A DNA stretch of 47,644 bases from a virus. Made by a program: the position numbers and the translations under genes. The stretch lies in IMG/VR virus record IMGVR_UViG_3300029845_000021; one strand, 5' to 3'. Under the pieces are notes generated by a model, which was not told where the DNA came from, ran no database searches, and was given only the letters and a program-made list of their open reading frames with translations. Positions 14,299-34,527 of this stretch are shown here, one piece after another (positions within the stretch are counted from its first letter, which is position 1; every line of letters begins with the position of its first letter).

Positions 14299-16489
14299 AT
14301 TTCAACGTTGCTTTAATGTTTCGACTACACAAATTTACGCTTAATTTATCAACTTGACCGTTACCGATATATGTTTTAACTAACTGCATCGGGTTTGGGT
14401 CTGTGGTTCCTGCCGGGAAATTCAATGTTTGTTTCTTTTTACGTTCCAATCCTCCCATAGCATAATATGGGGAATTATTTATTTTGAAATTCCGTGCGGG
14501 CATATCATAAACCCAATATGTCGGTTGTATATTGATAAACGCTAAATATCCATTTTGCAAAAAATATTCTACGCTATCAACGGTTTGTCTTGTGAAAGGC
14601 AATTCCAATTGTCCGCCGCCGGACGGCGTAACTGCTGCAAACAATGCGAATCCATCGGAACTAATTGCACCGGGGTTTAACAACATCAAATCTATGTCAG
14701 ACGTAAAATTTGATATGTTAATTTCTTCAATTTTCCCGGCTGTTACATATTTTGACGTAATTTCTATTGGCAACCCCTCAAATGGTGTTGTTACATCATC
14801 CATCCACTCAAATCGATAACGTTCCGGCATTTCTACTTTGTCAAATGAATATTCAGACGTTGCAAAAGCTAATTTTTTGCCGTTCCTAACGCTTTCTAAT
14901 TGTGTTAAATCATAATCAATAATCGGGTTATATCCATACGAACCGCCATTTCTAAACCAACTTACCTGTTCAATTTTAAATTTTCCGTCCTCAATATACC
15001 AATAACATTTGTAAATATCCCGTAACATCGTCATAATCTGTTGTAATGTAATCGGGGCTTTTTGCGCCGGGGTTTTATATTCGCCATTAATGATATTACT
15101 TTTCTGACTTATTAGCAACTTAAATGACTGCCCGGAAATAGGATTGTTTGTGTTATAAAGAAATTGGCTGTATTCCGGCGTCGCTTCATGCGTTATTCCG
15201 GGCGCAAATTCTTTTAATAGCACATTGATACATGACGACAATGTAAACGCATCACGCAAAGTATATGCTTTTCGGGCTTTTTCCTCTAATATCCAATCCA
15301 TCAGATAAAACCCAAACCATAACGACGCATAACGCCACGTTGACCGGGCGATTGGATAAAACGTTTGTCCATATATGGAATAAGGCGGCTCAAAATACTT
15401 TCCACTGTCGGCTAATCCCCACTCGGTCGGCGTATCTGAAAAATTATTAGATATAAATGCCACGTCGATTGCGTAACCAATTGCCCGGCGGTAATTTCTA
15501 TTATTATCTACAATATCATCGGACGACAACGGGTATGTATCTAAATCGCCTATTTTATCAACATCAACCAAATACCGGGCGTATATATTATAACTTTTCA
15601 TATCGGCGTGCATCGTACCCGTTGCTCCGGAACCCTCAACGGCGGTTAAATCAAATTCCAACGTATCAAAAGGTTCTTGCGTCATCTTTGTATACCGGAA
15701 CATTGCCACATCATCAGAACGGCGGCGTATCTCAACACCTGCTAGCCCAATAGGTAGCCCACCCGCAACTCGTTTTTGTGCAATATGGATATAATAATTT
15801 ACATTTAATTCCGGGTATAAATCTCCCATAAATTCATCAGGACTTACACTCGTCGACATCCGCCCACTATAAAGCCCGGATATTACCGCCGGGGAACCTT
15901 GCGACGTAATTTGTATTTCTTTCAAAATATTACATAGTGCAAAATGATAGGTTTGTATTAATGCGTTTTGGTCAGTCGTGGCGTTTGCGTCTTGTTCCCA
16001 ATTCGTGCCGCCCAAAAAGCACGAAACAATACTATCTCCGGGAACGTATATTTGTATCAATGGGCGTTTTCTTATTGTAAGAAATTCGATTTGTGGGGCC
16101 AACTCAATTAAATTGTATTCCTTTTCCAATCCTGCCAAGACGTCGTTGTATTGGTCTATTGTTTCCGGCTGTACCGTAACCAATTTATCATCATCATTAA
16201 ACGTACAATCCGTTTTCATAAACTTTGCTTTATAGTATTGATTGTATGTTTGTCCCCAATCATCGCTTTTTTCGATATATAGGAAAAATTCAGAATCAAA
16301 CGGGGCGTTATTGATAATATCGTAATCAGCACGGACAAAGTTTATTTTACCGGACAATTTAGCCCGGTAAAACCTTTGATTTGTTTCCAACTCATAATCC
16401 AACGTTAAATCATCCTTATAATTGGGGCGGACGGTTTGTTTGGTTCCGTCCTCCCCTATCTGCAAAAAGAATCTATATTTTGGTGTCAT
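14285..16489 (-). CDS. Distal tail / tail-tip structural protein (hypothetical, 734 aa)
   Basis: Immediately downstream of the tape measure gene with a 4-nt overlap. Size and position are typical of distal tail or tail-tip proteins. Confidence 0.6.
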   Translation of the reverse strand: MTPKYRFFLQIGEDGTKQTVRPNYKDDLTLDYELETNQRFYRAKLSGKINFVRADYDIINNAPFDSEFFLYIEKSDDWGQTYNQYYKAKFMKTDCTFNDDDKLVTVQPETIDQYNDVLAGLEKEYNLIELAPQIEFLTIRKRPLIQIYVPGDSIVSCFLGGTNWEQDANATTDQNALIQTYHFALCNILKEIQITSQGSPAVISGLYSGRMSTSVSPDEFMGDLYPELNVNYYIHIAQKRVAGGLPIGLAGVEIRRRSDDVAMFRYTKMTQEPFDTLEFDLTAVEGSGATGTMHADMKSYNIYARYLVDVDKIGDLDTYPLSSDDIVDNNRNYRRAIGYAIDVAFISNNFSDTPTEWGLADSGKYFEPPYSIYGQTFYPIARSTWRYASLWFGFYLMDWILEEKARKAYTLRDAFTLSSCINVLLKEFAPGITHEATPEYSQFLYNTNNPISGQSFKLLISQKSNIINGEYKTPAQKAPITLQQIMTMLRDIYKCYWYIEDGKFKIEQVSWFRNGGSYGYNPIIDYDLTQLESVRNGKKLAFATSEYSFDKVEMPERYRFEWMDDVTTPFEGLPIEITSKYVTAGKIEEINISNFTSDIDLMLLNPGAISSDGFALFAAVTPSGGGQLELPFTRQTVDSVEYFLQNGYLAFINIQPTYWVYDMPARNFKINNSPYYAMGGLERKKKQTLNFPAGTTDPNPMQLVKTYIGNGQVDKLSVNLCSRNIKATLKYDTE

Positions 16490-19400
16490 AGTCTTTTTAT
16501 TTTACGTTTCAAATTCTTGTAACTTTCAATCGTATTTCCGTCGCCATCCACGTAAACCCGTCGTCGGTTCTGTTCCTTAATTTCCCTTACATCATCCGAC
16601 AAATTGCGTAAATCCGGGCTTTGTCCGGTAACGTTTAACGTCAAACCGTCGCCGTCTGAATAGGATTTTAAATACTTATGTGCAAACGTACCATTGTTTA
16701 GCGAATTGATAACGTCCGGTATTATCTTTCTGAAACGGCGTGAACTTCGTTTATTTATCACGGCGAAAAATTCGCCTCCCTCGGCACGTCGGCGGGTTCC
16801 GTCCGGTTTCGTTCCTAAATCAATATCATTTCCGCTTTGGTGCGAACCGCCCTCCAAAAGTTCAACGGTACCGTCGCCGTATGTTTCCGTTCCTCCGGTT
16901 CCTCCGGTCTGTTTTGCCAATTGCGCCGCCTTGATTTTAGACGCTGCAAAACTCGCCCACATTACGGCAATTGCAGGTATTGCAAACGGGAAACCTAATT
17001 GCGACCATATCAGCGCCGTTGCTGTTACCATGTTTCCGATTTGCTGCAATGTTTGTATTGCTGCCTGCTGTTTTTGCGCTTTCTGTTGTTCTTTCAACGC
17101 TTTTTCTTGGTTTTTCTTTGCCAAATCCAACTCCTTTTGCGCTTGTACAACATTATTGGCGTACCCGTTTGCCCTTGCTTCCAATTCTGCATCCAACGCC
17201 GATTGTGCGGCGGAAACCTCTTTATCCGCTTGCTCAACGGCTGCATCTGCTGCGGCAACACGTGCCGCCGTGAATGTATTTAACGCATCCAATGCGTATT
17301 GCATAGACGTATTAATTGCCTCTTTTTGGTCGTCGTCCAAATTAAGCCCAAACAAACCGTAAATGTCTGTTCCTCGTTCCTCCCCTTTGGATTGCTCAAT
17401 TTCTTGGTCTATTTTTTTAATAGTGTTTTGAATTGTTTGTACCTCAACATCAGACAATTTATTGGCGGCTTGCTGATTTAATTCTAAAACCTTTTGCAAA
17501 CGTTCCTTTTCTGCTTGCAAACGGAATTGAGTTTTCCGGGCTTCTGAATTTCTCAACAAATCAAACTCCGATTGTGCCAACGCTTGTTGTTGGTCGAATA
17601 TCTGTAATTGCGCTTGCAAATATTCGTCCACAATTCCGGCTCCCTTTGCGTCAAAACTTGCATTAATCGCCCCGGCGTCTTGCTGTTGCCCGGTCGGTTT
17701 CTGTTGGTTCTGTAATAATGCGGTTTGTCTTTCGTTTTCCAACAACTGCATCCGCAATTGTCTTTCCTGCTCGCTTCCCTTTTTGACTGCTTGCAAACGT
17801 AATTCAATGCTTTCTTTCTGCAACGCCAATTCCTGCAATTGTCGGTCTTGTTCGATTTTCAATAATGCCTCGGTTTGTTGCTGTTCCAACGCCGTAATTG
17901 TGGCGTTTATCGCTTGGCGTCCGGTTTCGTTCAAATCCTTTTCGGTCTGCAATTGGTGTTGTAAATCCTCAATTTGGCGGGAATACTGATATTGCGTTTG
18001 TTGGCGACGCTTTGCCCATTCGTCGGTTTCCAACTGCAATTGTGCATCCTGCAATTTTCGGGTTGCTTCCAAATTCTTTTTATATGCCGCCTCAATTTGT
18101 TTTGCTTGCTGTTCTGCTGCCTTTTCCGCATCGCTTTTACCCCTCGGCGTTACGGTTGGGTCCTGTGTTGTTACGGGTTTGTTCCCGGTCGGTTCTTTTG
18201 GCGTATCTCCTACGGAAACGGGGATTGTTATCGGCTTTATTTTCTTTTGCATATCATCCAACCCCTCTTTGAAATTTTGGGTAATGTCCTTTACTTGTGC
18301 TTTTACCAAATTTCCGTATGCGGCTGCATAATCTGACAACCCTTTTTTAACGTCGTCAAAATCCAACGTAAACGCTCCCTTTAATGCGGTTCCGGTTGCT
18401 TTGACAATATCAATAAAGAATCCAAACAAATTTCCCAACGTGTCAAATGTGGTTTTAAATCCGGCAACTATACCGTTCCAAATGGCACGTATCAAAACAC
18501 TTTCATTGTACAACTCAATAAAGTAATTGACAACATCAATAACCCCTTTTATTATCGCCGTCAATCCTTGGTTAACAAAAACTTTTGCCTGCGTTGTCAA
18601 CGTTTCAAAATTTCCTCCGATTGCGTCAAACAACCCGGATAATGCGTTTTGCAACTCAATTTGGCTTTGCAATTGTTCCTCCTGCAATTGCGCCAAAACT
18701 CCGGCTTTCCCTTTTACTTCATCCATGTTTGTTGAAATATCTTTCAACGTGCGCAAATACTGCAATCCGGCGTCCTCTCCGGGTCCCCCGAATATATCTG
18801 CAATTGCAGCTCCGACCGTTGCCGCATTATCCGGCAATTCTGCCAATTTTGCGGAAACGTCTTGTATAACATCGAACGTTGTTTTGGTTCCGGTCTGCAA
18901 ATCTTTTTGAACTTGTTCCGACGAAATACCGATACCGTCCAAAGCCGCCGCCGTCGCCGTCGTCATTTCACGCAAACGCAAATTTGCCTCCTTAATTGCG
19001 TCAACGCCTTTGTCCGAAAAGATACCCATTTTGTTTGTTTGGGCTACAATCGCAACAAATTGGTCTGCTGATATTCCAGCCTCTTTGAAATATGCCGGGT
19101 ATTCTTTCAACGTGTCTAAAAATTCCCCGTTCGCATCGGCTCCGGACAAAAAACCATCCTTAACCAACTGCAATGCCTCATTTGCAGAAATACCAAATTG
19201 TTTTGATAATGCGTTTGTTGCAATCAATGTTTCCCGGAAATCTGCGCCGAACGAATCTGCGACGGCTTGCACCTCATTTCTAAACGCTTTCAAATCATCG
19301 CCACTTTTCCCGGTAAATTGTTGCGTCAATCTCGTTGCCTCAACTAACCCGGCGTTATAATCGTACCACCATTTAAACGCCGCACCCGCCGCCGCAATTC

Positions 19401-20151
19401 CGGCAATCGCCAAAAAAACCGGGTTTGAAAGTAATCCCAACAAAGTTTTTCCCAATGCTTTTGCCCCGTCGCCAATAGCTGTAAAAACGGCTTTACTTTC
19501 AGCCCCGCCACGTCCTAACGCCAAAAGACTTTCGCCAAATGCGCTATTTAAACCTAACGTTTCTTTTAATTTGTCGCCATACGCAATAATTGCGTCGGAC
19601 GCCTCCGTATAATTTCCGACGTTCAATTGAAATTTCCCGGTTGCTTCCTGCAAACGTTTCATTTCTTCGTATATTTCTTTGGTTTGTGCAACCAATTTTC
19701 GCCCCTCCTCGGTGTTTTCCCGTTCGGCTTTAGTCATGTTGTTTAAATAAATCTTATTCAATGAATATTGCGCCGATAAACGGTTATAACTACCCTCGGC
19801 GGATTGATTTATTTTCACAATCAGTTTATTAATTTGGTTCGCTTCCTGCTGTGCCAATTTTAACTCGGCTAACTTTTTGGCGTTCTCGCTTTCTGCAAAC
19901 GCCAAATCACGTTGCGCACGTGCCAAACGTTCCGCATCGTCTGCGGCTTTTTTGGTTGTCTTTCGCCCGTCCTCCGTTGCGCCGGAAACCTTTTTCAGAA
20001 TCTCCGCCAATTGTATTGCTTCGGCTTTGATATTTTTCAGCGCATTTGTATATGTGTCCGAAAGTTCATCCAATTGTTTTATCAAATCTGTAATCGAATT
20101 ATCCGGGCTTATTAAATCCGAATATTTGATTGGGTTGTTATTATCTGCCAT
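16486..20151 (-). CDS. Tail tape measure protein (1221 aa)
   Basis: Longest gene. It has extended coiled-coil Q/E/A/L-rich regions and central hydrophobic glycine-rich segments (LAIAGIAAAGAAF). Its position matches a tape measure gene. Confidence 0.85.
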   Translation of the reverse strand: MADNNNPIKYSDLISPDNSITDLIKQLDELSDTYTNALKNIKAEAIQLAEILKKVSGATEDGRKTTKKAADDAERLARAQRDLAFAESENAKKLAELKLAQQEANQINKLIVKINQSAEGSYNRLSAQYSLNKIYLNNMTKAERENTEEGRKLVAQTKEIYEEMKRLQEATGKFQLNVGNYTEASDAIIAYGDKLKETLGLNSAFGESLLALGRGGAESKAVFTAIGDGAKALGKTLLGLLSNPVFLAIAGIAAAGAAFKWWYDYNAGLVEATRLTQQFTGKSGDDLKAFRNEVQAVADSFGADFRETLIATNALSKQFGISANEALQLVKDGFLSGADANGEFLDTLKEYPAYFKEAGISADQFVAIVAQTNKMGIFSDKGVDAIKEANLRLREMTTATAAALDGIGISSEQVQKDLQTGTKTTFDVIQDVSAKLAELPDNAATVGAAIADIFGGPGEDAGLQYLRTLKDISTNMDEVKGKAGVLAQLQEEQLQSQIELQNALSGLFDAIGGNFETLTTQAKVFVNQGLTAIIKGVIDVVNYFIELYNESVLIRAIWNGIVAGFKTTFDTLGNLFGFFIDIVKATGTALKGAFTLDFDDVKKGLSDYAAAYGNLVKAQVKDITQNFKEGLDDMQKKIKPITIPVSVGDTPKEPTGNKPVTTQDPTVTPRGKSDAEKAAEQQAKQIEAAYKKNLEATRKLQDAQLQLETDEWAKRRQQTQYQYSRQIEDLQHQLQTEKDLNETGRQAINATITALEQQQTEALLKIEQDRQLQELALQKESIELRLQAVKKGSEQERQLRMQLLENERQTALLQNQQKPTGQQQDAGAINASFDAKGAGIVDEYLQAQLQIFDQQQALAQSEFDLLRNSEARKTQFRLQAEKERLQKVLELNQQAANKLSDVEVQTIQNTIKKIDQEIEQSKGEERGTDIYGLFGLNLDDDQKEAINTSMQYALDALNTFTAARVAAADAAVEQADKEVSAAQSALDAELEARANGYANNVVQAQKELDLAKKNQEKALKEQQKAQKQQAAIQTLQQIGNMVTATALIWSQLGFPFAIPAIAVMWASFAASKIKAAQLAKQTGGTGGTETYGDGTVELLEGGSHQSGNDIDLGTKPDGTRRRAEGGEFFAVINKRSSRRFRKIIPDVINSLNNGTFAHKYLKSYSDGDGLTLNVTGQSPDLRNLSDDVREIKEQNRRRVYVDGDGNTIESYKNLKRKIKRL

Positions 20152-26762: not shown

Positions 26763-27257
26763 TTATTTGTTTGTTTCCGGCGCATCCTGCTTTGCTTCCG
26801 GTGTTTCCTTTGATATTCTTCCCGACTTTGCCGCCGTTGCCAACAATCCCTCGGCTTTCAGTTCTGCAAGAATTTCGGCTTTCATAGCTTCTTTCATTGC
26901 TTTTTTCTCTGCCTCTGCTGCCTCTGCTTTGGCTTTTGCACCGGCTTCGGCTTTCTTCTGTTTTTCTGCCTCCAATTTAGCCTCGTTTTCCTGCAACCAT
27001 TTGTTCGGGTCGTGCATTACATCAACGGTAAAACCCTGCTTTCTCAAATTGTGCAACCCAAAAGATTCAAAGAACTTTTTGCCGAAAACCTGCATACGTG
27101 GTTTTGAAATTCTTTCGCCCGTGTCTTGGTTGAATTTCTTAACCTCAATTCGGCAATGATAACAATCTTCCTCGCCCTTTGGTACAATAAAATTTTCCGG
27201 GGTAACGTCTAAAATATTGACGTCTTTAATTTGCCCCTCCTCTGTTCTCACTTGCAT
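26763..27257 (-). CDS. Hypothetical head-module protein with an A/E/K-rich helical region
   Basis: 164 aa containing EAKLEAEKQKKAEAGAKAKAEAAEAEKKAMKEAMKAE. It overlaps the portal gene 3' end by 32 nt. Confidence 0.5.
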   Translation of the reverse strand: MQVRTEEGQIKDVNILDVTPENFIVPKGEEDCYHCRIEVKKFNQDTGERISKPRMQVFGKKFFESFGLHNLRKQGFTVDVMHDPNKWLQENEAKLEAEKQKKAEAGAKAKAEAAEAEKKAMKEAMKAEILAELKAEGLLATAAKSGRISKETPEAKQDAPETNK

Positions 27258-28947
27258 ACTCGTAAAATTTATTAGTTATTACTTTTATTTTCTCGGAAAA
27301 TGGTATTTGCGTTCCAAATTCCAAAATATTTGTATTTTCTCGCTCAAATCTGCGAACAAAATTAGCAAAATTCAGTTTTACACGCAATTCCGGTTCGCTA
27401 ATTATCTGTTGCCCATATAAATTTAATACCTCGGCACGGGTTAAATGTCGGTACGGCTCCAATTCTGCCAACACTAACATACGTTGTAATTGGGTCGAGT
27501 CGTTCCGGTACTCCGTTTCGATAATTTGGTTTTGCATTGCGTCCAATTCTGCCTCACTTGCTCCGGTTTCCTTTGCTAACTTGTAACGTTCCCGCAACTC
27601 CATTGCATCGTAAATATAAAATTCCGTGCCTAAATTGATTTTTGCAGAAACAAACAAATTGCCGTACCTCAATCGGCAAACCGTTTCATCAACGAATTGT
27701 TGCGCCGCCTCAAATCCTTTCTTTACCCGGTTTAAAATTGTGCTTTGGCTCTCAAAATTTGCTTTTATCTGTTGTTCGTTCAATGCGTCCCGTGTTGTTA
27801 TTTCCTCATTCGTTCCGACAATAGACGTGATAATATTGTTGCGCAATCGCTCTTCCTCGGCAACATTATAATCCAAACTATTACGGTCAACGGTCAACAT
27901 CTGAACCGGGTTGCGCAAATCCGGTTGTTTGTCGCCATCGGGAACGGGTATTTCAACAAAAGAACCAACCCCGGCAATTCGTTTGTCGCCACATTTCGGG
28001 CAACGCTCTAATATCCCGGCTTGGTCTAACTTGTAACGTCCTTGTTTGTCTTTCAAAAACCCGCCGTCGCAATAATCGCCATTTTCTGCGTTGCTGAAAT
28101 CGCAACTTTGTTCATAGCCGGAATAAATAGGATATGAACCGTACATATCCAAATGCCGTTTTGATATATGATAAAACAGATACCAATCCATGCTTTCCAA
28201 CTGCTCGGTCAATGGCGACGCCTTAACATCGGGTTCCCTCAAACTTATTGCCTCATTCCAAAAGAAACGGGCGGGGGTATAACCTAAATCGTGGGGGCTG
28301 TCAATCAGCAAATCGCCAATATTCCCGTCTTTCTCCGTAAATACCCGGTATCTCTCATCGTCAATTACTGCAATACGTTTGTCGTCCTGCTTGAAAATTA
28401 TCCATCGCATAACGCCCGTTACCGGGTCTGCATCAAACGTTATTACCTGCTCAATTGGCAACCAATAGAAATACGGACGGGGGTATTTATCGGCGGCGTC
28501 TTGCTCCGTTGGCAAATCCACAATTAGAACGCTGTTAATTTCGGTTTTGAAATATTCCCACCCTTTAGAACTCCAAATTTCCGGCTCCCTTAAAACGTTC
28601 TGTCTATAATACTCCCAATCGTCCCTTTGTCCGCTCTCCATAAACTGATAATTGAACGCCGGGTTACGACCGTCAAAAATTCGGCTCAACTTATCAAAGC
28701 AAATTCCCGTTACCTCGTTGGTCTTAACGGGGTAACGGAAAAGAGTTTTGAAAATTTTAAACTTATCGTCGGGTATAAGGTTTGAAACGAAATTCAGAAA
28801 ATCCGTTAACGGTTGACTGATATACGGCGAAACAAAGGTTTCGGCGTGAAACTTAATGCGCTGTTGGTGTACAATCGCACGGTTAATCGTCGCCCCTTTC
28901 TTTTGCTCCGTAATCTGTTTTTTTATGTCGTTTATACCTAATCCCAT
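27226..28947 (-). CDS. Portal protein candidate (start moved to the ATG at 28947; the track start at 28965 is TTG)
   Basis: 573 aa located between TerL and the scaffold/capsid genes. The call rests on size and position. Confidence 0.6.
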   Translation of the reverse strand: MGLGINDIKKQITEQKKGATINRAIVHQQRIKFHAETFVSPYISQPLTDFLNFVSNLIPDDKFKIFKTLFRYPVKTNEVTGICFDKLSRIFDGRNPAFNYQFMESGQRDDWEYYRQNVLREPEIWSSKGWEYFKTEINSVLIVDLPTEQDAADKYPRPYFYWLPIEQVITFDADPVTGVMRWIIFKQDDKRIAVIDDERYRVFTEKDGNIGDLLIDSPHDLGYTPARFFWNEAISLREPDVKASPLTEQLESMDWYLFYHISKRHLDMYGSYPIYSGYEQSCDFSNAENGDYCDGGFLKDKQGRYKLDQAGILERCPKCGDKRIAGVGSFVEIPVPDGDKQPDLRNPVQMLTVDRNSLDYNVAEEERLRNNIITSIVGTNEEITTRDALNEQQIKANFESQSTILNRVKKGFEAAQQFVDETVCRLRYGNLFVSAKINLGTEFYIYDAMELRERYKLAKETGASEAELDAMQNQIIETEYRNDSTQLQRMLVLAELEPYRHLTRAEVLNLYGQQIISEPELRVKLNFANFVRRFERENTNILEFGTQIPFSEKIKVITNKFYEYASENRGGAN

Positions 28948-29098
28948 AATCTTTGCTAAATTCAAAATTTGAGTTTTCCGGCAACTGCCATCCGCCGTTA
29001 TTTCCCATCATCAACAAACGTTCGGCGTGCGTTATCTCAAATTCTCGTTTCATATTGTGTTGGGGACAAACCAATAAAACTTTTGTTGTCTTTCCCAT
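28883..29098 (-). CDS. Small hypothetical protein (71 aa from the ATG at 29098) overlapping the portal start by 65 nt
   Basis: ORF MGKTTKVLLVCPQHNMKREFEITHAERLL... The long overlap makes either its 3' part or the portal start uncertain. Confidence 0.35.
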   Translation of the reverse strand: MGKTTKVLLVCPQHNMKREFEITHAERLLMMGNNGGWQLPENSNFEFSKDYGIRYKRHKKTDYGAKERGDD

Positions 29099-29115: not shown

Positions 29116-29760
29116 CTATGGTGCCGCTTTTAAATCTGTTAGCGGGTTGAAATCCTCCGGAACAATAATTGCCAAATCATCCGACCAATTCGGCAAAAAT
29201 GCCCATTGAATGTTGTTGCTATCCGGTGCCTCATATCCGCCCAATGTTTTATCGCCGATAAACAAAGAACGTATTGGAATCGGATAATGGGTTGTTGCTG
29301 TTTTTGCGTCTTGAATTGCTCCAATTGCGCCGTTTTCGTCAAACAGATAAACGCCCAAATTGTCGCCCCAACTTTCGCACTGCAATTCTTTCAAAGCCTT
29401 GATAATTTTCTGTGGCAACTTTCGCATAACCCCGGTAAATGGCGTTGGCTCACGTCCCACAATTTCCTCAACGCCTCCCAATGTTTCGTTACCACCTCCA
29501 AACGTTCTTGCTGCGCCTGCTTCTGCTGTCGGGGCTTGAATGTATGGGGAAATAACAATCTTTGTATCATCGTCAGCCGCCAACAACGGCGTCCACGACG
29601 CTTTTTTTTCAATACCTGCATCGGTTTTAAATGAATTTTTTTCTCCTGTGCTTTTGTACAATCTTTGAAATGCTACTTTCTGAATCTGCCCAAAACTTTC
29701 CGGGCAATTACTTACGGGAATATCGGGCAAAGCCGTACCCGCCGGACACTTACAAATCAT
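29116..29760 (-). CDS. Hypothetical virion protein (214 aa) between terminase and portal; tail-tube candidate by elimination only
   Basis: ATG start, preceded by a -7-like box. No tail-tube-sized gene was recognised in the usual position. Confidence 0.55.
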   Translation of the reverse strand: MICKCPAGTALPDIPVSNCPESFGQIQKVAFQRLYKSTGEKNSFKTDAGIEKKASWTPLLAADDDTKIVISPYIQAPTAEAGAARTFGGGNETLGGVEEIVGREPTPFTGVMRKLPQKIIKALKELQCESWGDNLGVYLFDENGAIGAIQDAKTATTHYPIPIRSLFIGDKTLGGYEAPDSNNIQWAFLPNWSDDLAIIVPEDFNPLTDLKAAP

Positions 29761-29883: not shown

Positions 29884-32418
29884 TTAGTTACGACGTTTAA
29901 CGCCCCTTGTTGCTTGGCTGTATGGTCGTGTATCGCCGTCCGCCAACTCTTTTTCGTATATTCCGGTCAATCCGTCCTCCGGGTCGTCATGGGCATTTGC
30001 AGGAAAATCACGCAAAAACCCGGTCAAATGTTCGTGTATCTTTGGAAAACGCTGTTCCCATCCAATCGGCATTATTATTTGTGCATTTACCATCGCTGAA
30101 TTTGTTATAATTCGGCTTTCCTTGTTTGCCCCTTGATAAAATGGTTCTGTTACTGCTTTTATCTTTTTCCTTATAACCTTTTCAAAGCCGGAACCGCCGT
30201 TGTTACTTTCAATCCATGCTTTTTGCGTTCCGCATCTGTTTATCATATCCGGGACGGTAACGGCTGTTATTTCTGTGTTTTCCTGCGTAAATACCATGTC
30301 GGTAATTAGCGCATACAAAATTGGTTCAAACCGTTTCTTTTGTTCGTTCCATGCCTCATTACCGGATTTGTAAATGTCATAACATGCCGAAAATGTAAAG
30401 TCGTCGCCCTCGTCGGCAACGTCTGTATAATTTCCGCTACGTACATACGTCCCCCATTCGGATTTGTCAACGTATGTTCGGAACGGGTTCCGGTACAATT
30501 TACCCTCTGCGTTTCCGGGGTTGCCTTGATACAAACATTGAAATTGTACGGGGTCTAACGCTCTTTGTCCCTCCAATTTTGCCCGGCTGTGTCGTCTATC
30601 CCATAACGCCGCCCCCGGTTCCCGTGGGTCAATCTCTGTAGGTTCCCCGGTTTTCAGTCCCTCAAAATTTATTCGTACCCATGCGCCCGCCGGAATGTTC
30701 TTTACATCGTCCCAACTTTTAATATCAATTACGGTTTCCCCGCTTTTTTCAATACGTCCAATCAAATCATCATCATGCCAACGGGTAAACACAATTAATT
30801 CTTGGGAATCATTATGCAAACGGGTACGTACAACGGTCGTGTACCATTTCCACGCCGCATTACGTACAATCGGGCTGTTGCCCTCGGCATAATCTTTGTA
30901 AACGTCGTCCAAAATAGATACATCAACCGTTTTTGACGTCAAAGAACCGCCACGACCGACAACACGCAACAAACCCTTATGCCCAACCATTTCTATGACG
31001 TCAGAATTTCGTAAATACGTATTAGCCATTGTTACGACGTTGGAACCGTTCAAATACGTTTCCGGGAACAATTCCCGGTAACTTGGCGTATCAATTATTC
31101 TTTGAACATCACGGTTAAAATCTCTCGCAATCGTTGCAGCATAAGAACCTATACAAATCTTTTTGTCCGGATTTAAACCCAACATGAAAGCGGGCAACTT
31201 CCGGCTTGAACCCTCACTATTATGCGTAGGAATAAACGTATCTCCAACCAGATAGATACCCCCATCTACTTGGATGCAATTACCATAACCCAAGCCCTCC
31301 TTTCGTTCAATAGAAACAATAGCACGCTTCTTATTTATAGACAATTTCGTTATCTTCTTACGTTTTACTTTTGTCGGGAAAGTCATTGTAGGATTAAAAC
31401 AGAGTTGATATACTATCTTCTTCCCTACTATTCCGCTACTACTAACCCTAGGTTTGAATTCACACACAACTACAGACTGACCTAATGAGCGTAATATAAA
31501 TGCTGCATCGTCTATAATCCGCTTGTTTGTGTTGGATATGGTTATACGTCCGTTTCTGTGATACACATACCCATCTGTATCAATTAATCCAGCAATCACA
31601 TTCTTGCGAACTTCAACTGAATTGTATTTATACATATCCGGTATATGTTTATTCTTAATTAGTCCATTATTTTTTAGTAAAAGATTCAATTCTGGGCTGT
31701 AGAACTTACGTGTTGTCGTGCCCTTACTTTCTTTGAACTTATATGTACTATTCCCTATTATTTCAACATCATTATTGCCAATGTGTATAATCCCACATGA
31801 GCTATCCCCATCTCCTAGCCACGCTCCTAAAACGTATGGGTCTAAATCTACATTCCGACTATCAAACATTACGCAAACATTACTATCTACATGGTATTTA
31901 TATCGGCTTCCTCTTTTTCCATCTCCATTATATATTGTGGAGGATGCCATATGCTTCGTTTCTATAGTTTCCTCTTTCTGTCGAAATCTATTATATACCG
32001 TCCATTCGTGATTGCCATGACATTCTATCTTTGCTCCATCAGAAAAAGAAACGACATATTCGCTTCTTGTTTTTTCTGACACCCATAAGACTTTAACCGG
32101 TGTTCCATCCCTACCAAACACGTAATCCCCTACAATTAAATCACCATGTTTTTTTAGCCCTTTAGTGGTAGCAACTATCTGATTATCTGATATTTCCTTA
32201 CCATGTTGAGGCGGCATTTGCACAATCATTTTTTTTATTTCCCCGTGGGCGAACTTATCAAGCAACGTATAATATACGACATGAAATGGTTCTAATACCA
32301 TATCGGGCTGCATATACCGGGCAAAGTTTATCAACCGCTTCCGGGCTGCTTGCTTTACCAATTCGCCGGGGTTTGATTTTATGAAAGAAGACATCTTCAT
32401 CATCTGTTCATAGTCCAT
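29884..32418 (-). CDS. terL: Terminase large subunit precursor interrupted by an intein (844 aa; 518 aa after splicing)
   Basis: Split Walker A PPQHGK/SEGSS, Walker B TVDVSILDDV, and nuclease-domain acidic motif YTDVADEGDDFTF. It follows the TerS gene. Confidence 0.85.
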   Translation of the reverse strand: MDYEQMMKMSSFIKSNPGELVKQAARKRLINFARYMQPDMVLEPFHVVYYTLLDKFAHGEIKKMIVQMPPQHGKEISDNQIVATTKGLKKHGDLIVGDYVFGRDGTPVKVLWVSEKTRSEYVVSFSDGAKIECHGNHEWTVYNRFRQKEETIETKHMASSTIYNGDGKRGSRYKYHVDSNVCVMFDSRNVDLDPYVLGAWLGDGDSSCGIIHIGNNDVEIIGNSTYKFKESKGTTTRKFYSPELNLLLKNNGLIKNKHIPDMYKYNSVEVRKNVIAGLIDTDGYVYHRNGRITISNTNKRIIDDAAFILRSLGQSVVVCEFKPRVSSSGIVGKKIVYQLCFNPTMTFPTKVKRKKITKLSINKKRAIVSIERKEGLGYGNCIQVDGGIYLVGDTFIPTHNSEGSSRKLPAFMLGLNPDKKICIGSYAATIARDFNRDVQRIIDTPSYRELFPETYLNGSNVVTMANTYLRNSDVIEMVGHKGLLRVVGRGGSLTSKTVDVSILDDVYKDYAEGNSPIVRNAAWKWYTTVVRTRLHNDSQELIVFTRWHDDDLIGRIEKSGETVIDIKSWDDVKNIPAGAWVRINFEGLKTGEPTEIDPREPGAALWDRRHSRAKLEGQRALDPVQFQCLYQGNPGNAEGKLYRNPFRTYVDKSEWGTYVRSGNYTDVADEGDDFTFSACYDIYKSGNEAWNEQKKRFEPILYALITDMVFTQENTEITAVTVPDMINRCGTQKAWIESNNGGSGFEKVIRKKIKAVTEPFYQGANKESRIITNSAMVNAQIIMPIGWEQRFPKIHEHLTGFLRDFPANAHDDPEDGLTGIYEKELADGDTRPYSQATRGVKRRN
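31219..32196 (-). mobile_element. Intein (aa 75-400 of TerL) with a LAGLIDADG homing endonuclease domain; class 3-like (no N-terminal nucleophile)
   Basis: C-terminal THN followed by Ser+1. LAGLIDADG motifs LGAWLGDGDS and IAGLIDTDGY. Block B reads GNHEW and block F reads YGNCIQV. The first residue is Glu. GC is lower than in the exteins. Confidence 0.8.
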
Positions 32419-32488
32419 ATTTTACAATTTGATAGCTTTTTGTTTGTTTTAGTAACGCACTTTTTTGTCCGTTGTGGATTTAGCACCC

Positions 32489-32722
32489 TTACTTACGTTT
32501 TGAAATACATTGATTCCTTTTCGGTTTCCATTTGTCACAAGCCTTTTCCGAACGAATCATACTTCTATTATCTACATACGGACATTTAATGCAAATAGGC
32601 TTTCCTTCAATATCCAAATTTGAATGAGTATAGTAGTACTCTCCCCAACCGCAATCCCCACAGATATGCACAGGCTTCGGTTCATCCTTTTTCTTTACGT
32701 TTGTTTTAGCTGTTCTTGCCAT
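32489..32722 (-). CDS. Small zinc-ribbon protein between TerS and TerL
   Basis: 77 aa containing CGDCGW...CIKCPY. Confidence 0.55.
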   Translation of the reverse strand: MARTAKTNVKKKDEPKPVHICGDCGWGEYYYTHSNLDIEGKPICIKCPYVDNRSMIRSEKACDKWKPKRNQCISKRK

Positions 32723-33254
32723 TACCGACCTCCTTTCCTTTTTGTATCTTATTAAATTCTGCCTCCTGTAATTTATCGGCTATGTCAAATAATACATCTT
32801 CCGGCAAATCCTCAAAGCAATAGTTGTGGCTCTGTTCCTCAGCAGGTTTAGTTTCTTGCGCTTCTACCCTCTGCTTGTTTACCCATTTTTTCGGTGCAAC
32901 ATTTGTCAAAGCAAATATCAATGCTCCGGTATCCGGCTGTATATGCTTAACCTTTGTGCGTTGGCTTTTTATCTTTGGGTTTCCGTTACTATCACTGACA
33001 TATTCTGTATCTGTTTCAGTAACCTCATATCCCATTGCCCTTTTCCACAAGGTCGCTTCTAATTTCCCGGTAATAGTTGCTAAAAACTCATCTTTAGACT
33101 TTTTAATGCGTTCCGAGAATTCCGGCTTCGCCTTTATCCAATCGTGGAACGTACTATCTCCAATCCCTGCTTTCTTGCAAGCTAATTTCTGACTATCTCC
33201 GTCCCTAATATACGCACATATCGCTTCAACGGTCTGTTTGTTATACTTTGCCAT
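32706..33254 (-). CDS. terS: Terminase small subunit
   Basis: N-terminal HTH (TVEAICAYIRDGDSQKLACKKAGIGDSTFHDWIKAKPEF) and the motif ATLWKRAMGYEV, located upstream of TerL. Confidence 0.7.
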   Translation of the reverse strand: MAKYNKQTVEAICAYIRDGDSQKLACKKAGIGDSTFHDWIKAKPEFSERIKKSKDEFLATITGKLEATLWKRAMGYEVTETDTEYVSDSNGNPKIKSQRTKVKHIQPDTGALIFALTNVAPKKWVNKQRVEAQETKPAEEQSHNYCFEDLPEDVLFDIADKLQEAEFNKIQKGKEVGNGKNS

Positions 33255-33306
33255 AGTTTTAAGTATTATTTTGGGTTATGTTTATTAATGCATCTAAAGA
33301 GGGGTT

Positions 33307-34527
33307 TTACTCCCCGCTTATTTTTTTAGCCTTCTTCCCGGTAAACTGCTCCCACCTTGCAAGTATAACATCGCAATAATGCGGGTCTAACTCCATCATG
33401 TAGCATTTACGGTTTACTTGCTCGCAAGCAATAATGCTTGTACCGCTTCCACCAAATGAATCCAATACTATATCTCCCTTCTGACTGCTGTTCTGTATCT
33501 GATAGGCAAACAACTCAATAGGCTTCATTGTAGGATGCTCTGCGTTCCGGTTTGGTTTGTTGAATTCCAACACTGTTGTTTGCTTTCTGTCTGAATACCA
33601 ATTATGACTCGCTCCGGCTTTCCATCCGTACAAACAAGGCTCATGCTTCCATTGGTAATCTTGGCGACCAATTACCATAGCATTTTTGCTCCATATCAAA
33701 CATTGCTTCATTAACCAACCGCAATGCTTAACTGCATATCTAAAATTGTACCCCTCAATATCGGCGTGCCAAATGTAAAAGGATGCACCTTCTTTCAATA
33801 CCGAATCAGCTGCCATAAACGCATTTACTAAGAAATCTCTAAAGCTGTCATCATTCATTTCGTCATTCTGTATAGTTAGTGCATCTTTTGTCTTACCTTC
33901 GTATGCTACATTATACGGTGGGTCGGTAATATACAAATCTACTTTCTCTCCGGAAAGCAGTTCTTGAATCATGGATGCTTTTGTACTATCTCCGCACATC
34001 AAGCGGTGGTCGCCAAGCTGCCATATATCTCCCGGGTGACATCTTTGCTTTGCTTTTACCTTGCTGATGTCGTCTTCTTGAATATTCCTTTTCGGTGGTT
34101 CGTTAAACCATCCCTTTGGGGTTTCAATGTTCCATGCCATTATTTCGTCTTTGCTCCAATCCTTTGCAAGTTTTGCCCAATCTGTTTGTCCGGTGCTTTC
34201 ATTATCCAACAACGCCATACGGCGTAATTTCTCAACCGGGGTATCCTCCGGCAAAGCAATAATTGGCACCTCCTTACGTTTCAAAGCCCTTTGTGCTTCT
34301 AAACGTCTATTACCACCTATAACGACGTAACGACCGTTATATGGAAAACACAACGCCGCACGTGCAATTGTCATTTCCGGCAAATCCTCAATACTCTTTT
34401 CCAAATTGCGCTGCTTTGCATCCTCTCTCGTTCTCGGATTTTCCGGAACGCTGGGTATTTGTCCCTCGTTGTACTCTAATAATTCTATCGGTACAAACTG
34501 AATCTGAATTTCATTGTTATTTTTCAT
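33307..34527 (-). CDS. ParB-like nuclease domain fused to a DNA methyltransferase (beta-class N6A/N4C, DPPY)
   Basis: ParB N-domain RYVVIGGNRRLEAQRALKRKEVPII. Motif IV is LYITDPPYN and is followed later by motif I, VLDSFGGSGTS. Confidence 0.85.
   Translation of the reverse strand: MKNNNEIQIQFVPIELLEYNEGQIPSVPENPRTREDAKQRNLEKSIEDLPEMTIARAALCFPYNGRYVVIGGNRRLEAQRALKRKEVPIIALPEDTPVEKLRRMALLDNESTGQTDWAKLAKDWSKDEIMAWNIETPKGWFNEPPKRNIQEDDISKVKAKQRCHPGDIWQLGDHRLMCGDSTKASMIQELLSGEKVDLYITDPPYNVAYEGKTKDALTIQNDEMNDDSFRDFLVNAFMAADSVLKEGASFYIWHADIEGYNFRYAVKHCGWLMKQCLIWSKNAMVIGRQDYQWKHEPCLYGWKAGASHNWYSDRKQTTVLEFNKPNRNAEHPTMKPIELFAYQIQNSSQKGDIVLDSFGGSGTSIIACEQVNRKCYMMELDPHYCDVILARWEQFTGKKAKKISGE

Follow-up and report, generated by a model that had tools for sequence, protein, structure and literature searches.

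A putative class 3 intein with a LAGLIDADG homing endonuclease in the Walker A motif of a Bacteroidales phage terminase

Described class 3 inteins and the locus under study

Class 3 inteins are defined by the lack of a required nucleophile at position 1 together with a signature of Trp B:12, Cys F:4, and Thr G:5 (WCT triplet), usually followed by Ser or Thr as the +1 residue, and their splicing proceeds via an obligate Cys F:4 that forms the first, thiol-labile branched intermediate (PMC2807308, PMC3196547, PMC5222942). They constitute a monophyletic clade (PMC3196547), and nucleophile-less inteins with the WCT triplet were described in 2010 from DnaB, RecG, SNF2, and the large terminase subunits of phages, where most of them lie in the P-loop of an ATPase (PMC2807308). 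Here, we analyze a DNA stretch of 47,644 nucleotides (nt) from the IMG/VR virus record IMGVR_UViG_3300029845_000021 (this whole stretch is called the window below), in which the gene for the terminase large subunit (TerL) carries an insert of 326 amino acids (aa). A first-pass annotation made without database searches had proposed that this insert is a class 3 intein with an in-frame LAGLIDADG endonuclease, which splits the Walker A motif of TerL between its Lys and Ser. Our analysis supports this proposal: With a probability of roughly 0.88, the insert is a class 3 intein that functions and whose LAGLIDADG homing endonuclease is active or was so until recently.

The founding class 3 intein is that of the DnaB-like helicase of mycobacteriophage Bethlehem, and the first-pass annotation correctly stated that the class was first characterized in mycobacteriophage proteins (PMC2807308). 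The intein of mycobacteriophage Catera gp206 is a class 3 intein containing a LAGLIDADG endonuclease that has been spliced experimentally (Tori and Perler 2011, as cited in PMC3196547). Many TerL inteins of mycobacteriophages have been mapped, class 3 inteins included, and the part of that study considered here names class 3 TerL1 inteins at sites c, d, and e, while the P-loop K/T site TerL1-a is called a “classic” insertion (Kelley et al. 2016, PMC5050341; a slash marks the insertion point here and below). A recent survey of actinobacteriophages comprises 287 class 3 inteins, nearly all of them in TerL and Cas4 exonuclease and with canonical LAGLIDADG endonucleases (Gosselin et al. 2025, bioRxiv 10.1101/2025.01.02.630785). 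The class 2 type, found in KlbA, also lacks a nucleophile at position 1 (Ala1), but it has no WCT triplet, carries Asp at F:4, and relies on direct attack by Cys+1 (PMC2807308, PMC3196547).

An insert in the Walker A motif of TerL and its class 3 signature

The strings and coordinates given in the first-pass annotation are all present in the translated open reading frame (ORF) of TerL (Table 1). The N-terminal junction reads ...VQMPPQHGK(74)/EISDNQIVATTKGL..., i.e., E(75)ISDNQIVATTKGL..., the C-terminal junction reads ...FIPTHN(400)/S(401)EGSSRKLPAF, and cutting out residues 75 to 400 leaves a protein of 518 aa with a restored Walker A motif, PPQHGKSEGSS. In a joint alignment with four TerL homologues of 518 aa that are 94% to 96% identical, a single gap of 326 columns falls exactly at K74/S401, just as the first-pass annotation had anticipated for intein-less homologues. 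Since K differs from N and E differs from S, there is no sliding, and the boundary is fixed to the residue. The insert interrupts the GK/S of the TerL Walker A motif, and the element is real and intact. It had also been described as more AT-rich than the exteins, which is true (36.5% GC compared to 41.9% and 44.7%), but this is a weak argument because the insert ranks only at the 12th percentile among 978-nt windows of the same genome and is no outlier.

The host protein is a phage terminase large subunit of the Terminase_6N type, and its neighbors fit a packaging module. The TIGR01630 terminase C-terminal domain was matched in the C-extein (1.1e-11 in the profile search), and the spliced product of 518 aa matches phrog_38 (terminase large subunit) at 9.4e-76. 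The unspliced protein of 844 aa does not reach a Pfam terminase model; the cut-off of Terminase_6N is passed only after in silico splicing (23.2 bits against a cut-off of 22), with a match that begins at residue 69 (PPQHGKS). G73 and K74 are invariant in an alignment of ten terminases, and no solved terminase was matched when the spliced extein was used as a single-sequence query against the Protein Data Bank (PDB). We assign the interrupted motif as Walker A because of the Pfam and PHROG matches, the GK[ST] motif itself, and an insertion site that is common to 214 of 238 relatives of the intein (described below).

Table 1. Features of the TerL locus, the predicted parts of its intein, and neighboring genes (window positions)
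Feature	Position	Strand	Basis or remarks
TerL precursor ORF (N-extein, intein, C-extein), 844 aa + stop	29884..32418	-	ORF list
N-extein, aa 1-74	32197..32418	-	ends in first half of Walker A (PPQHGK, 32197-32214)
Intein, 326 aa (Glu75 to Asn400)	31219..32196	-	clean gap against intein-less homologues, AlphaFold2, Foldseek
Block A (EISDNQIVATTKG)	32158..32196	-	position 1 is Glu75, no nucleophile; length and register as ALALDTPLPTPSG of class 3 DnaB inteins
Block B (GAKIECHGNHEWTV)	31996..32037	-	His137 is B:10 (32008-32010), Trp139 is B:12 (32002-32004)
LAGLIDADG homing endonuclease domain, about aa 190-345	31384..31851	-	Pfam, PI-SceI alignment, fold matches
LAGLIDADG motif 1, LGAWLGDGDS, aa 197-206	31801-31830	-	
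LAGLIDADG motif 2, IAGLIDTDGY, aa 275-284	31567-31596	-	
Block F (YGNCIQVDGGIYLVGD)	31240..31287	-	Cys381 is F:4 (31276-31278), predicted class 3 initiating nucleophile
Block G (TFIPTHN) and Ser401 (+1)	31216..31239	-	Thr398 is G:5, His399 is G:6, Asn400 is G:7
C-extein, aa 401-844 + stop	29884..31218	-	remaining ATPase domain and nuclease domain
Small terminase (TerS)	32706-33254		upstream of TerL, packaging-module neighbor
Head protein	29116-29760		downstream of TerL, packaging-module neighbor
Portal	27226-28965		downstream of TerL, packaging-module neighbor
Tape measure	16486-20151		neighbor in same module

In the insert itself, a HINT splicing domain encloses an intact LAGLIDADG endonuclease with two motifs. 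An AlphaFold2 model built from 41 sequences has a pLDDT of 92.4 and a pTM of 0.90, and its top Foldseek matches are the endonuclease-containing inteins PI-SceI (1e-17, TM 0.72), TliVMA, PhoVMA, and PI-PfuI. Next come I-DmoI, which matches the endonuclease, and the class 3 mini-inteins 6rix and 6bs8 (about 3-5e-6), which match the splicing domain. Besides this HINT fold, we found blocks A, B, F, and G, the His at B:10, and a C-terminal His-Asn followed by Ser; Ser401 doubles as +1 nucleophile and Walker A serine. For the endonuclease, the Pfam models Hom_end (2.7e-8) and LAGLIDADG_3 (9.5e-8) both score above their curated cut-offs, in line with the two motifs that the first-pass annotation had read from the translation, and these motifs carry their acidic residues (Asp203 and Asp282) in the alpha-beta-beta-alpha-beta-beta-alpha fold expected of a single-chain enzyme. 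In a sequence search of the PDB, the middle of the insert matches PI-SceI best (4e-7). Asp203, Lys257, and Asp282 are nearly invariant in the alignment of relatives and align with PI-SceI residues 218, 301, and 326, respectively, that is, with D218, K301, and D326, which we take to be its endonuclease active-site residues.

Antisense endonucleases have been reported for some actinophage inteins, and plus-strand ORFs also exist within the window's intein (31222-31485, 31718-32011, and 31891-32079). We rejected them as candidates of this kind since the endonuclease is clearly in frame with the intein.

The class of the intein is suggested by its residues and its closest relatives. All sequence features of class 3 are present (Glu75, Trp139, Cys381, Thr398, and Ser401, plus His137, His399, and Asn400), supporting the earlier proposal of an intein without a position-1 nucleophile but with the WCT signature. 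A class 1 intein would have Cys, Ser, or Thr at position 1, where the boundary set by intein-less homologues leaves Glu75, and the KlbA-type class 2 differs from what we found in Glu1, the WCT triplet, Cys F:4, Ser+1, and TerL as the host protein. Aligned from end to end, the intein of Catera gp206 is 30% identical (E 2e-40), and HxW, xCIxV, and PTHN/S or T are in register. In block B, the HEW of GNHEW (residues 135 to 139) aligns with HQW of 6bs8 and HLW of Catera gp206, and in block F the NCIQVD of GYGNCIQV aligns with RCVEVD in the region of the catalytic Cys118 of 6bs8 and with RCITV of Catera gp206. The ends of the insert, searched against PDB sequences, match the class 3 Msm DnaB intein 6bs8 (5.7e-8) and MchDnaB-1 6rix (4e-6) ahead of the class 1 intein gp41-1, which scores only between 0.03 and 0.4. 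We also considered Cys133 (block B:6) as a disulfide partner of Cys381, by analogy to Cys48 of Msm DnaBi1, but this position is Cys in just 117 of 266 relatives and the idea is unsupported.

Compared to the described systems, the window's intein combines familiar elements in a different host. It shares with the Catera gp206 intein the architecture of a two-motif LAGLIDADG domain between HINT halves, a hydroxyl +1 residue, and a position 1 other than Cys, Ser, or Thr, provided that the block A register of the clade holds. Catera gp206 differs in being a Cas4-like exonuclease of an actinobacteriophage, in Thr as its +1 residue, in Asp instead of His at block B:7, and in a block A of L-A-C-S-T-P after Lys-Ser that would give Leu1 rather than Glu1. 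The class 3 TerL inteins of actinobacteriophages have the gene type, the ATPase domain as insertion target, the WCT signature, and the canonical LAGLIDADG endonuclease in common with the window's intein, and those in terminases of Gordonia and Mycobacterium phages are about 30% to 32% identical to it; they differ in that the host lineage here is human-gut Bacteroidales siphoviruses and the extein is of the Terminase_6N type. The nearest solved splicing domains, those of Msm DnaBi1 and M. chimaera DnaB-1 (6bs8, 6rix, and 6riy; PMC6195587, PMC7664689), also sit in a P-loop after GK and have the WCT triplet, a C-terminal PTHN, and Ser+1, but they are mini-inteins without endonuclease from a bacterial DnaB helicase, with Ala1 and DxxH rather than HxxH in block B, and the redox partner Cys48 of DnaBi1 has no established counterpart in the window's intein. 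The Bethlehem DnaB intein (341 aa; PMC2807308) is phage-encoded like the window's intein, with a LAGLIDADG endonuclease, no position-1 nucleophile, an obligate Cys F:4, and a hydroxyl +1 residue, yet it sits in a DnaB-like helicase and has Pro1, Thr+1, and an N-extein junction at Gln rather than at the P-loop Lys. Finally, the yeast VMA1 intein PI-SceI is the best whole-molecule fold match and its endonuclease residues can be aligned, but it is a class 1 intein (Cys1, Cys+1) of 454 aa with an extra DNA-recognition region and a eukaryotic host.

Relatives of the intein and its empty and occupied alleles

An exhaustive search of 1.84 billion cluster representatives returned 16,731 proteins at E<=1e-3 and 536 at E<=1e-30. 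Our set of relatives consists of the best 150 of this search plus 120 word-indexed matches, and 238 of them are readable across the whole intein. His B:10, Trp B:12, and Cys F:4 are each found in all 238 complete relatives, a C-terminal T-H-N in 236, and insertion directly after Gly-Lys in 214, while 225 have Ser and 12 have Thr at +1 (237/238 together). Given this conservation, the clade is large and very uniform, and the window's intein is an ordinary representative of it.

Position 1 is the variable part of this picture. The relatives have Ala (101), Leu (56), Gln (39), Glu (17), Lys (9), or another residue (16) there, and just 6/238 have Cys or Ser. Glu1 makes up 17/161 once 77 inteins of dCTP deaminases (all with Ala1) are set aside, and the relatives with Glu1 fall into 16 distinct clusters at 50% identity in which the intein follows a GK. 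Among isolated phages with a TerL intein at the same site, B124-14 and BF702P1 have Glu1, while BK649P1 and Porphyromonas phage005b have Gln1. In the Bethlehem DnaB intein, the change P1A does not abolish splicing (PMC2807308), which shows that residue 1 is tolerant to change. The statement in the first-pass annotation that Glu1 would be unusual thus holds only weakly: It is a minority state, but one that recurs across clusters and in an isolated phage, and it does not appear surprising in a clade whose position 1 varies between A, L, Q, E, and K.

Related inteins also interrupt proteins that have no relation to TerL, among them dCTP deaminases, an exonuclease, and helicases. The inteins of the dCTP deaminases (P0154-P0240) form a large and uniform clade of their own that is about 30% identical to the window's intein, carries the WCT signature, and always has Ala1; they sit at a conserved [ILV]EGK/SS[LI]GRL, and some of their sources are named Solirubrobacteraceae. 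The resemblance of this GK/S context to the P-loop site suggests switching between unrelated hosts that share a short motif. A tblastn search with the intein alone matched 507 records of isolated phages, dominated by Mycobacterium phages and extending to phages of Gordonia, Escherichia, Salmonella, Vibrio, and Klebsiella as well as to the crAss-like Bacteroides phage DAC15. The latter encodes a full-length relative (MT074136.1, 10044-11069; H36) with 30.6% identity over 99% of the query, which lies in a gene annotated as hypothetical protein.

When searched with the spliced TerL, the databases returned near-identical proteins of two kinds, one with 844 aa and one with 518 aa (the latter 94% to 96% identical), and both kinds are abundant. 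One 518-aa cluster has 1544 members, and two intein-containing clusters of 844 aa and 845 aa have 1073 and 621; empty and occupied TerL alleles coexist in gut viromes. To read their junctions, we searched IMG/VR with a degenerate pattern that allows either codon at both junction positions and obtained 53 empty sites and, matching the left-junction pattern, 8 occupied ones. With further loci added, all 55/55 empty sites among L005-L068 read GGN AAA/AGC GAG, and the empty allele has CAACATGGnAAA to the left and AGCGAGGGT to the right of the insertion point. The occupied alleles (9/9) and the window read GGT AAG/intein/AGT GAG (junction codons at 32194-32199 and 31216-31221). These codon differences are synonymous, and their linkage to the presence of the intein is perfect.

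A similar pattern is seen in the separate and divergent B124-14 lineage, where the occupied alleles of B124-14 (L001) and BF702P1 (L071) have AGC for Ser+1 and the closely related, empty vB_BfrS_23 (L070) has TCA. The two codons thus share no base at the junction itself, while the nearest further mismatch lies at +12 nt. When the window is compared to the other intein-positive phages, the inteins are more alike (60% to 64% identity) than the exteins (43% to 56%). Linkage of flanking codons to the intein would be expected from co-conversion during homing and equally from selection of cleavage-resistant empty sites.

We also compared the extein DNA of the alleles ungapped, separately for N-extein and C-extein, and noticed a mosaic breakpoint near the intein site. 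From the C-extein onward, the intein-less locus L005 and the window share 98.6% identity, but in the 222-nt N-extein they share only about 77% (window region 32197-33300 compared), and blastn gave no match for most of the approximately 1.3 kb upstream of the TerL gene of L005. Intein-positive alleles carry both N-extein types (L006 has the other type), so we rejected the idea that the intein produced this breakpoint, which looks like ordinary module exchange.

Splicing, alternative explanations, and genomic setting

In the splicing route that we propose, which follows the published class 3 scheme, the 844-aa precursor would be unable to bind ATP properly until the intein has removed itself. 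The thiol of Cys381 (F:4) would attack the Lys74-Glu75 peptide bond, activated by His137 (B:10) with support from Trp139 (B:12), to give a thioester-branched intermediate, from which the N-extein would be transferred onto the side-chain oxygen of Ser401. Cyclization of Asn400, aided by His399, would then free the intein, and an O-to-N acyl shift would create the native Lys74-Ser401 bond of a 518-aa TerL with PPQHGKS. The endonuclease (Asp203, Asp282, and Lys257) would be expected to cut intein-less TerL alleles of co-infecting phages, and repair would then copy the intein in, plus a few flanking bases. We infer class 3 chemistry from the signature and from homology; splicing as such, its dependence on Cys381, and endonuclease activity are inferences as well.

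Indirect support for splicing comes from phages that evidently grow with the intein. The plaque-forming isolates B124-14, BK649P1, BF702P1, and Porphyromonas phage005b carry a 60% to 64% identical intein at the same site in their sole TerL match. Ten population alleles of the window's intein are all open, with no stop or frameshift, and among their polymorphic codons 17 vary synonymously only and 12 change the amino acid, none of the 12 at a splicing residue. Together with the invariant catalytic set of the relatives, these observations point to an element that still splices.

Several points nevertheless weigh against a functional and mobile class 3 intein. Class 3 is defined by mechanism, and sequence by itself cannot prove that Cys381 starts splicing. 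At block B:7, the window's intein has His, where two characterized class 3 inteins carry other residues, namely Asp in that of Msm DnaBi1 (PMC6195587) and Ser in that of Bethlehem DnaB (PMC2807308). The departure from these two is small, and B:7 was non-essential in the Bethlehem intein (PMC2807308). At least one population allele (among L006 and L061-L068) has a G204E change in LAGLIDADG motif 1 (LGDG to LGDE, codon 31807-31809), and endonuclease activity may therefore be decaying in part of the population. Finally, the linked flanking codons could simply reflect shared ancestry, as the sampled alleles are phylogenetically non-independent.

Among the alternatives, it is improbable that the intein follows a class 2-like route in which Ser401 attacks the Lys74-Glu75 amide directly and Cys381 is merely structural or assisting. 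The missing nucleophile at position 1 would fit, as in class 2 inteins, but these are known only from KlbA and without WCT triplet, with Asp at F:4 and Cys+1 in Mja KlbA (PMC2807308, PMC3196547), whereas Trp B:12 and Cys F:4 are kept in every complete relative of the window's intein and its closest characterized relatives belong to class 3. Moreover, Ser+1 was unable to initiate splicing in tested class 3 inteins (PMC5222942).

Slightly less probable still is an intein that is dead or degenerating, has ceased to splice, and persists selfishly while co-infecting intein-less phages supply functional TerL. Glu1 cannot serve as a nucleophile, the same populations commonly hold alleles without intein, and a class 3-like pseudogene intein is known from Arth_1007 (PMC3196547). 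However, this pseudogene has lost Cys F:4 and His B:10, while the catalytic residues of the window's intein are all intact and its alleles open. A TerL with split P-loop would be lethal without splicing to a phage growing alone, and clonal plaque-forming phages carry the homologous intein with Glu1 or Gln1 in a single TerL match.

That the insert is an integral accessory domain of a TerL lineage (e.g., a nuclease module) and never excised is hardly credible: Database records do label proteins of 833 to 847 aa plainly as “terminase large subunit” or “hypothetical protein”, but homologues with 94% to 96% identity lack exactly this segment, which breaks the GK/S of Walker A, forms a complete HINT splicing fold ending in His-Asn before Ser, and has related copies in the unrelated proteins named above.

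Going beyond the reading as a functional class 3 intein, one could see in the TerL inteins of Bacteroidales phages a functionally distinct class 3 sub-variant, marked by Glu1 or Gln1, HxxH in block B, the GK/S insertion, and an anaerobic host, with conditional splicing and with junction codons that record an arms race. We consider this joint reading unlikely. If it were true, splicing might be gated by redox via Cys381 or by pH or metal via Glu75 beside the scissile bond, phages would start to package DNA only once they are in a permissive host cytoplasm, and the junction codon differences in two phage lineages would reveal a live endonuclease-target arms race in the human gut virome.

The phage is of the Bacteroidales type, as its closest isolated relatives all infect Bacteroides, Parabacteroides, Alistipes, or Porphyromonas, and the Bacteroidota origin suggested in the first-pass annotation is thus borne out. 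This host lineage appears to be the only new aspect, given that class 3 inteins in phage TerL P-loops have been known since 2010, and the findings do not change the existing understanding of how inteins work. Our full-text literature search gave no paper that links an intein with B124-14 and none on class 3 inteins in Bacteroides phages, and just a review on Crassvirales connects inteins with terminases of Bacteroides phages. In the five intein-positive Bacteroidales records that we examined (B124-14, BK649P1, BF702P1, Porphyromonas phage005b, and the window's relatives), the intein is unannotated and the proteins of 833 to 847 aa are called “hypothetical protein” or plain “terminase large subunit”. 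TerL is a standard marker for phage phylogeny and clustering, and a mobile insert of 326 aa that is overlooked distorts filtering by length as well as alignments and gene-sharing networks. The class 3 clade has been known mostly from Actinobacteria and their phages and would now be extended to abundant gut phages of anaerobes. Homing dynamics could be studied in a natural population that holds both empty and occupied alleles, with junction codons tightly linked to the intein. For protein engineering, a class 3 intein that has a Ser+1 junction and comes from a mesophilic anaerobe system might be modestly useful.

Two further ORFs lie close to the terminase genes. Between TerS and TerL, a 77-aa ORF (32489-32722, minus strand) overlaps the end of TerS by 17 nt and encodes a Cys-rich, zinc-ribbon-like protein (CGDCGW...CIKCPY) without PHROG match; the relatives L006 and L007 have a gene for 69 aa in its place. 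Upstream of the terminase genes, a 406-aa ORF (33307-34527, minus strand) has a ParB-like or nuclease-like region at its N-terminus, joined to a DNA methyltransferase, and matches phrog_498 (1e-125) as well as phrog_8071 and phrog_940 on residues 4 to 226.

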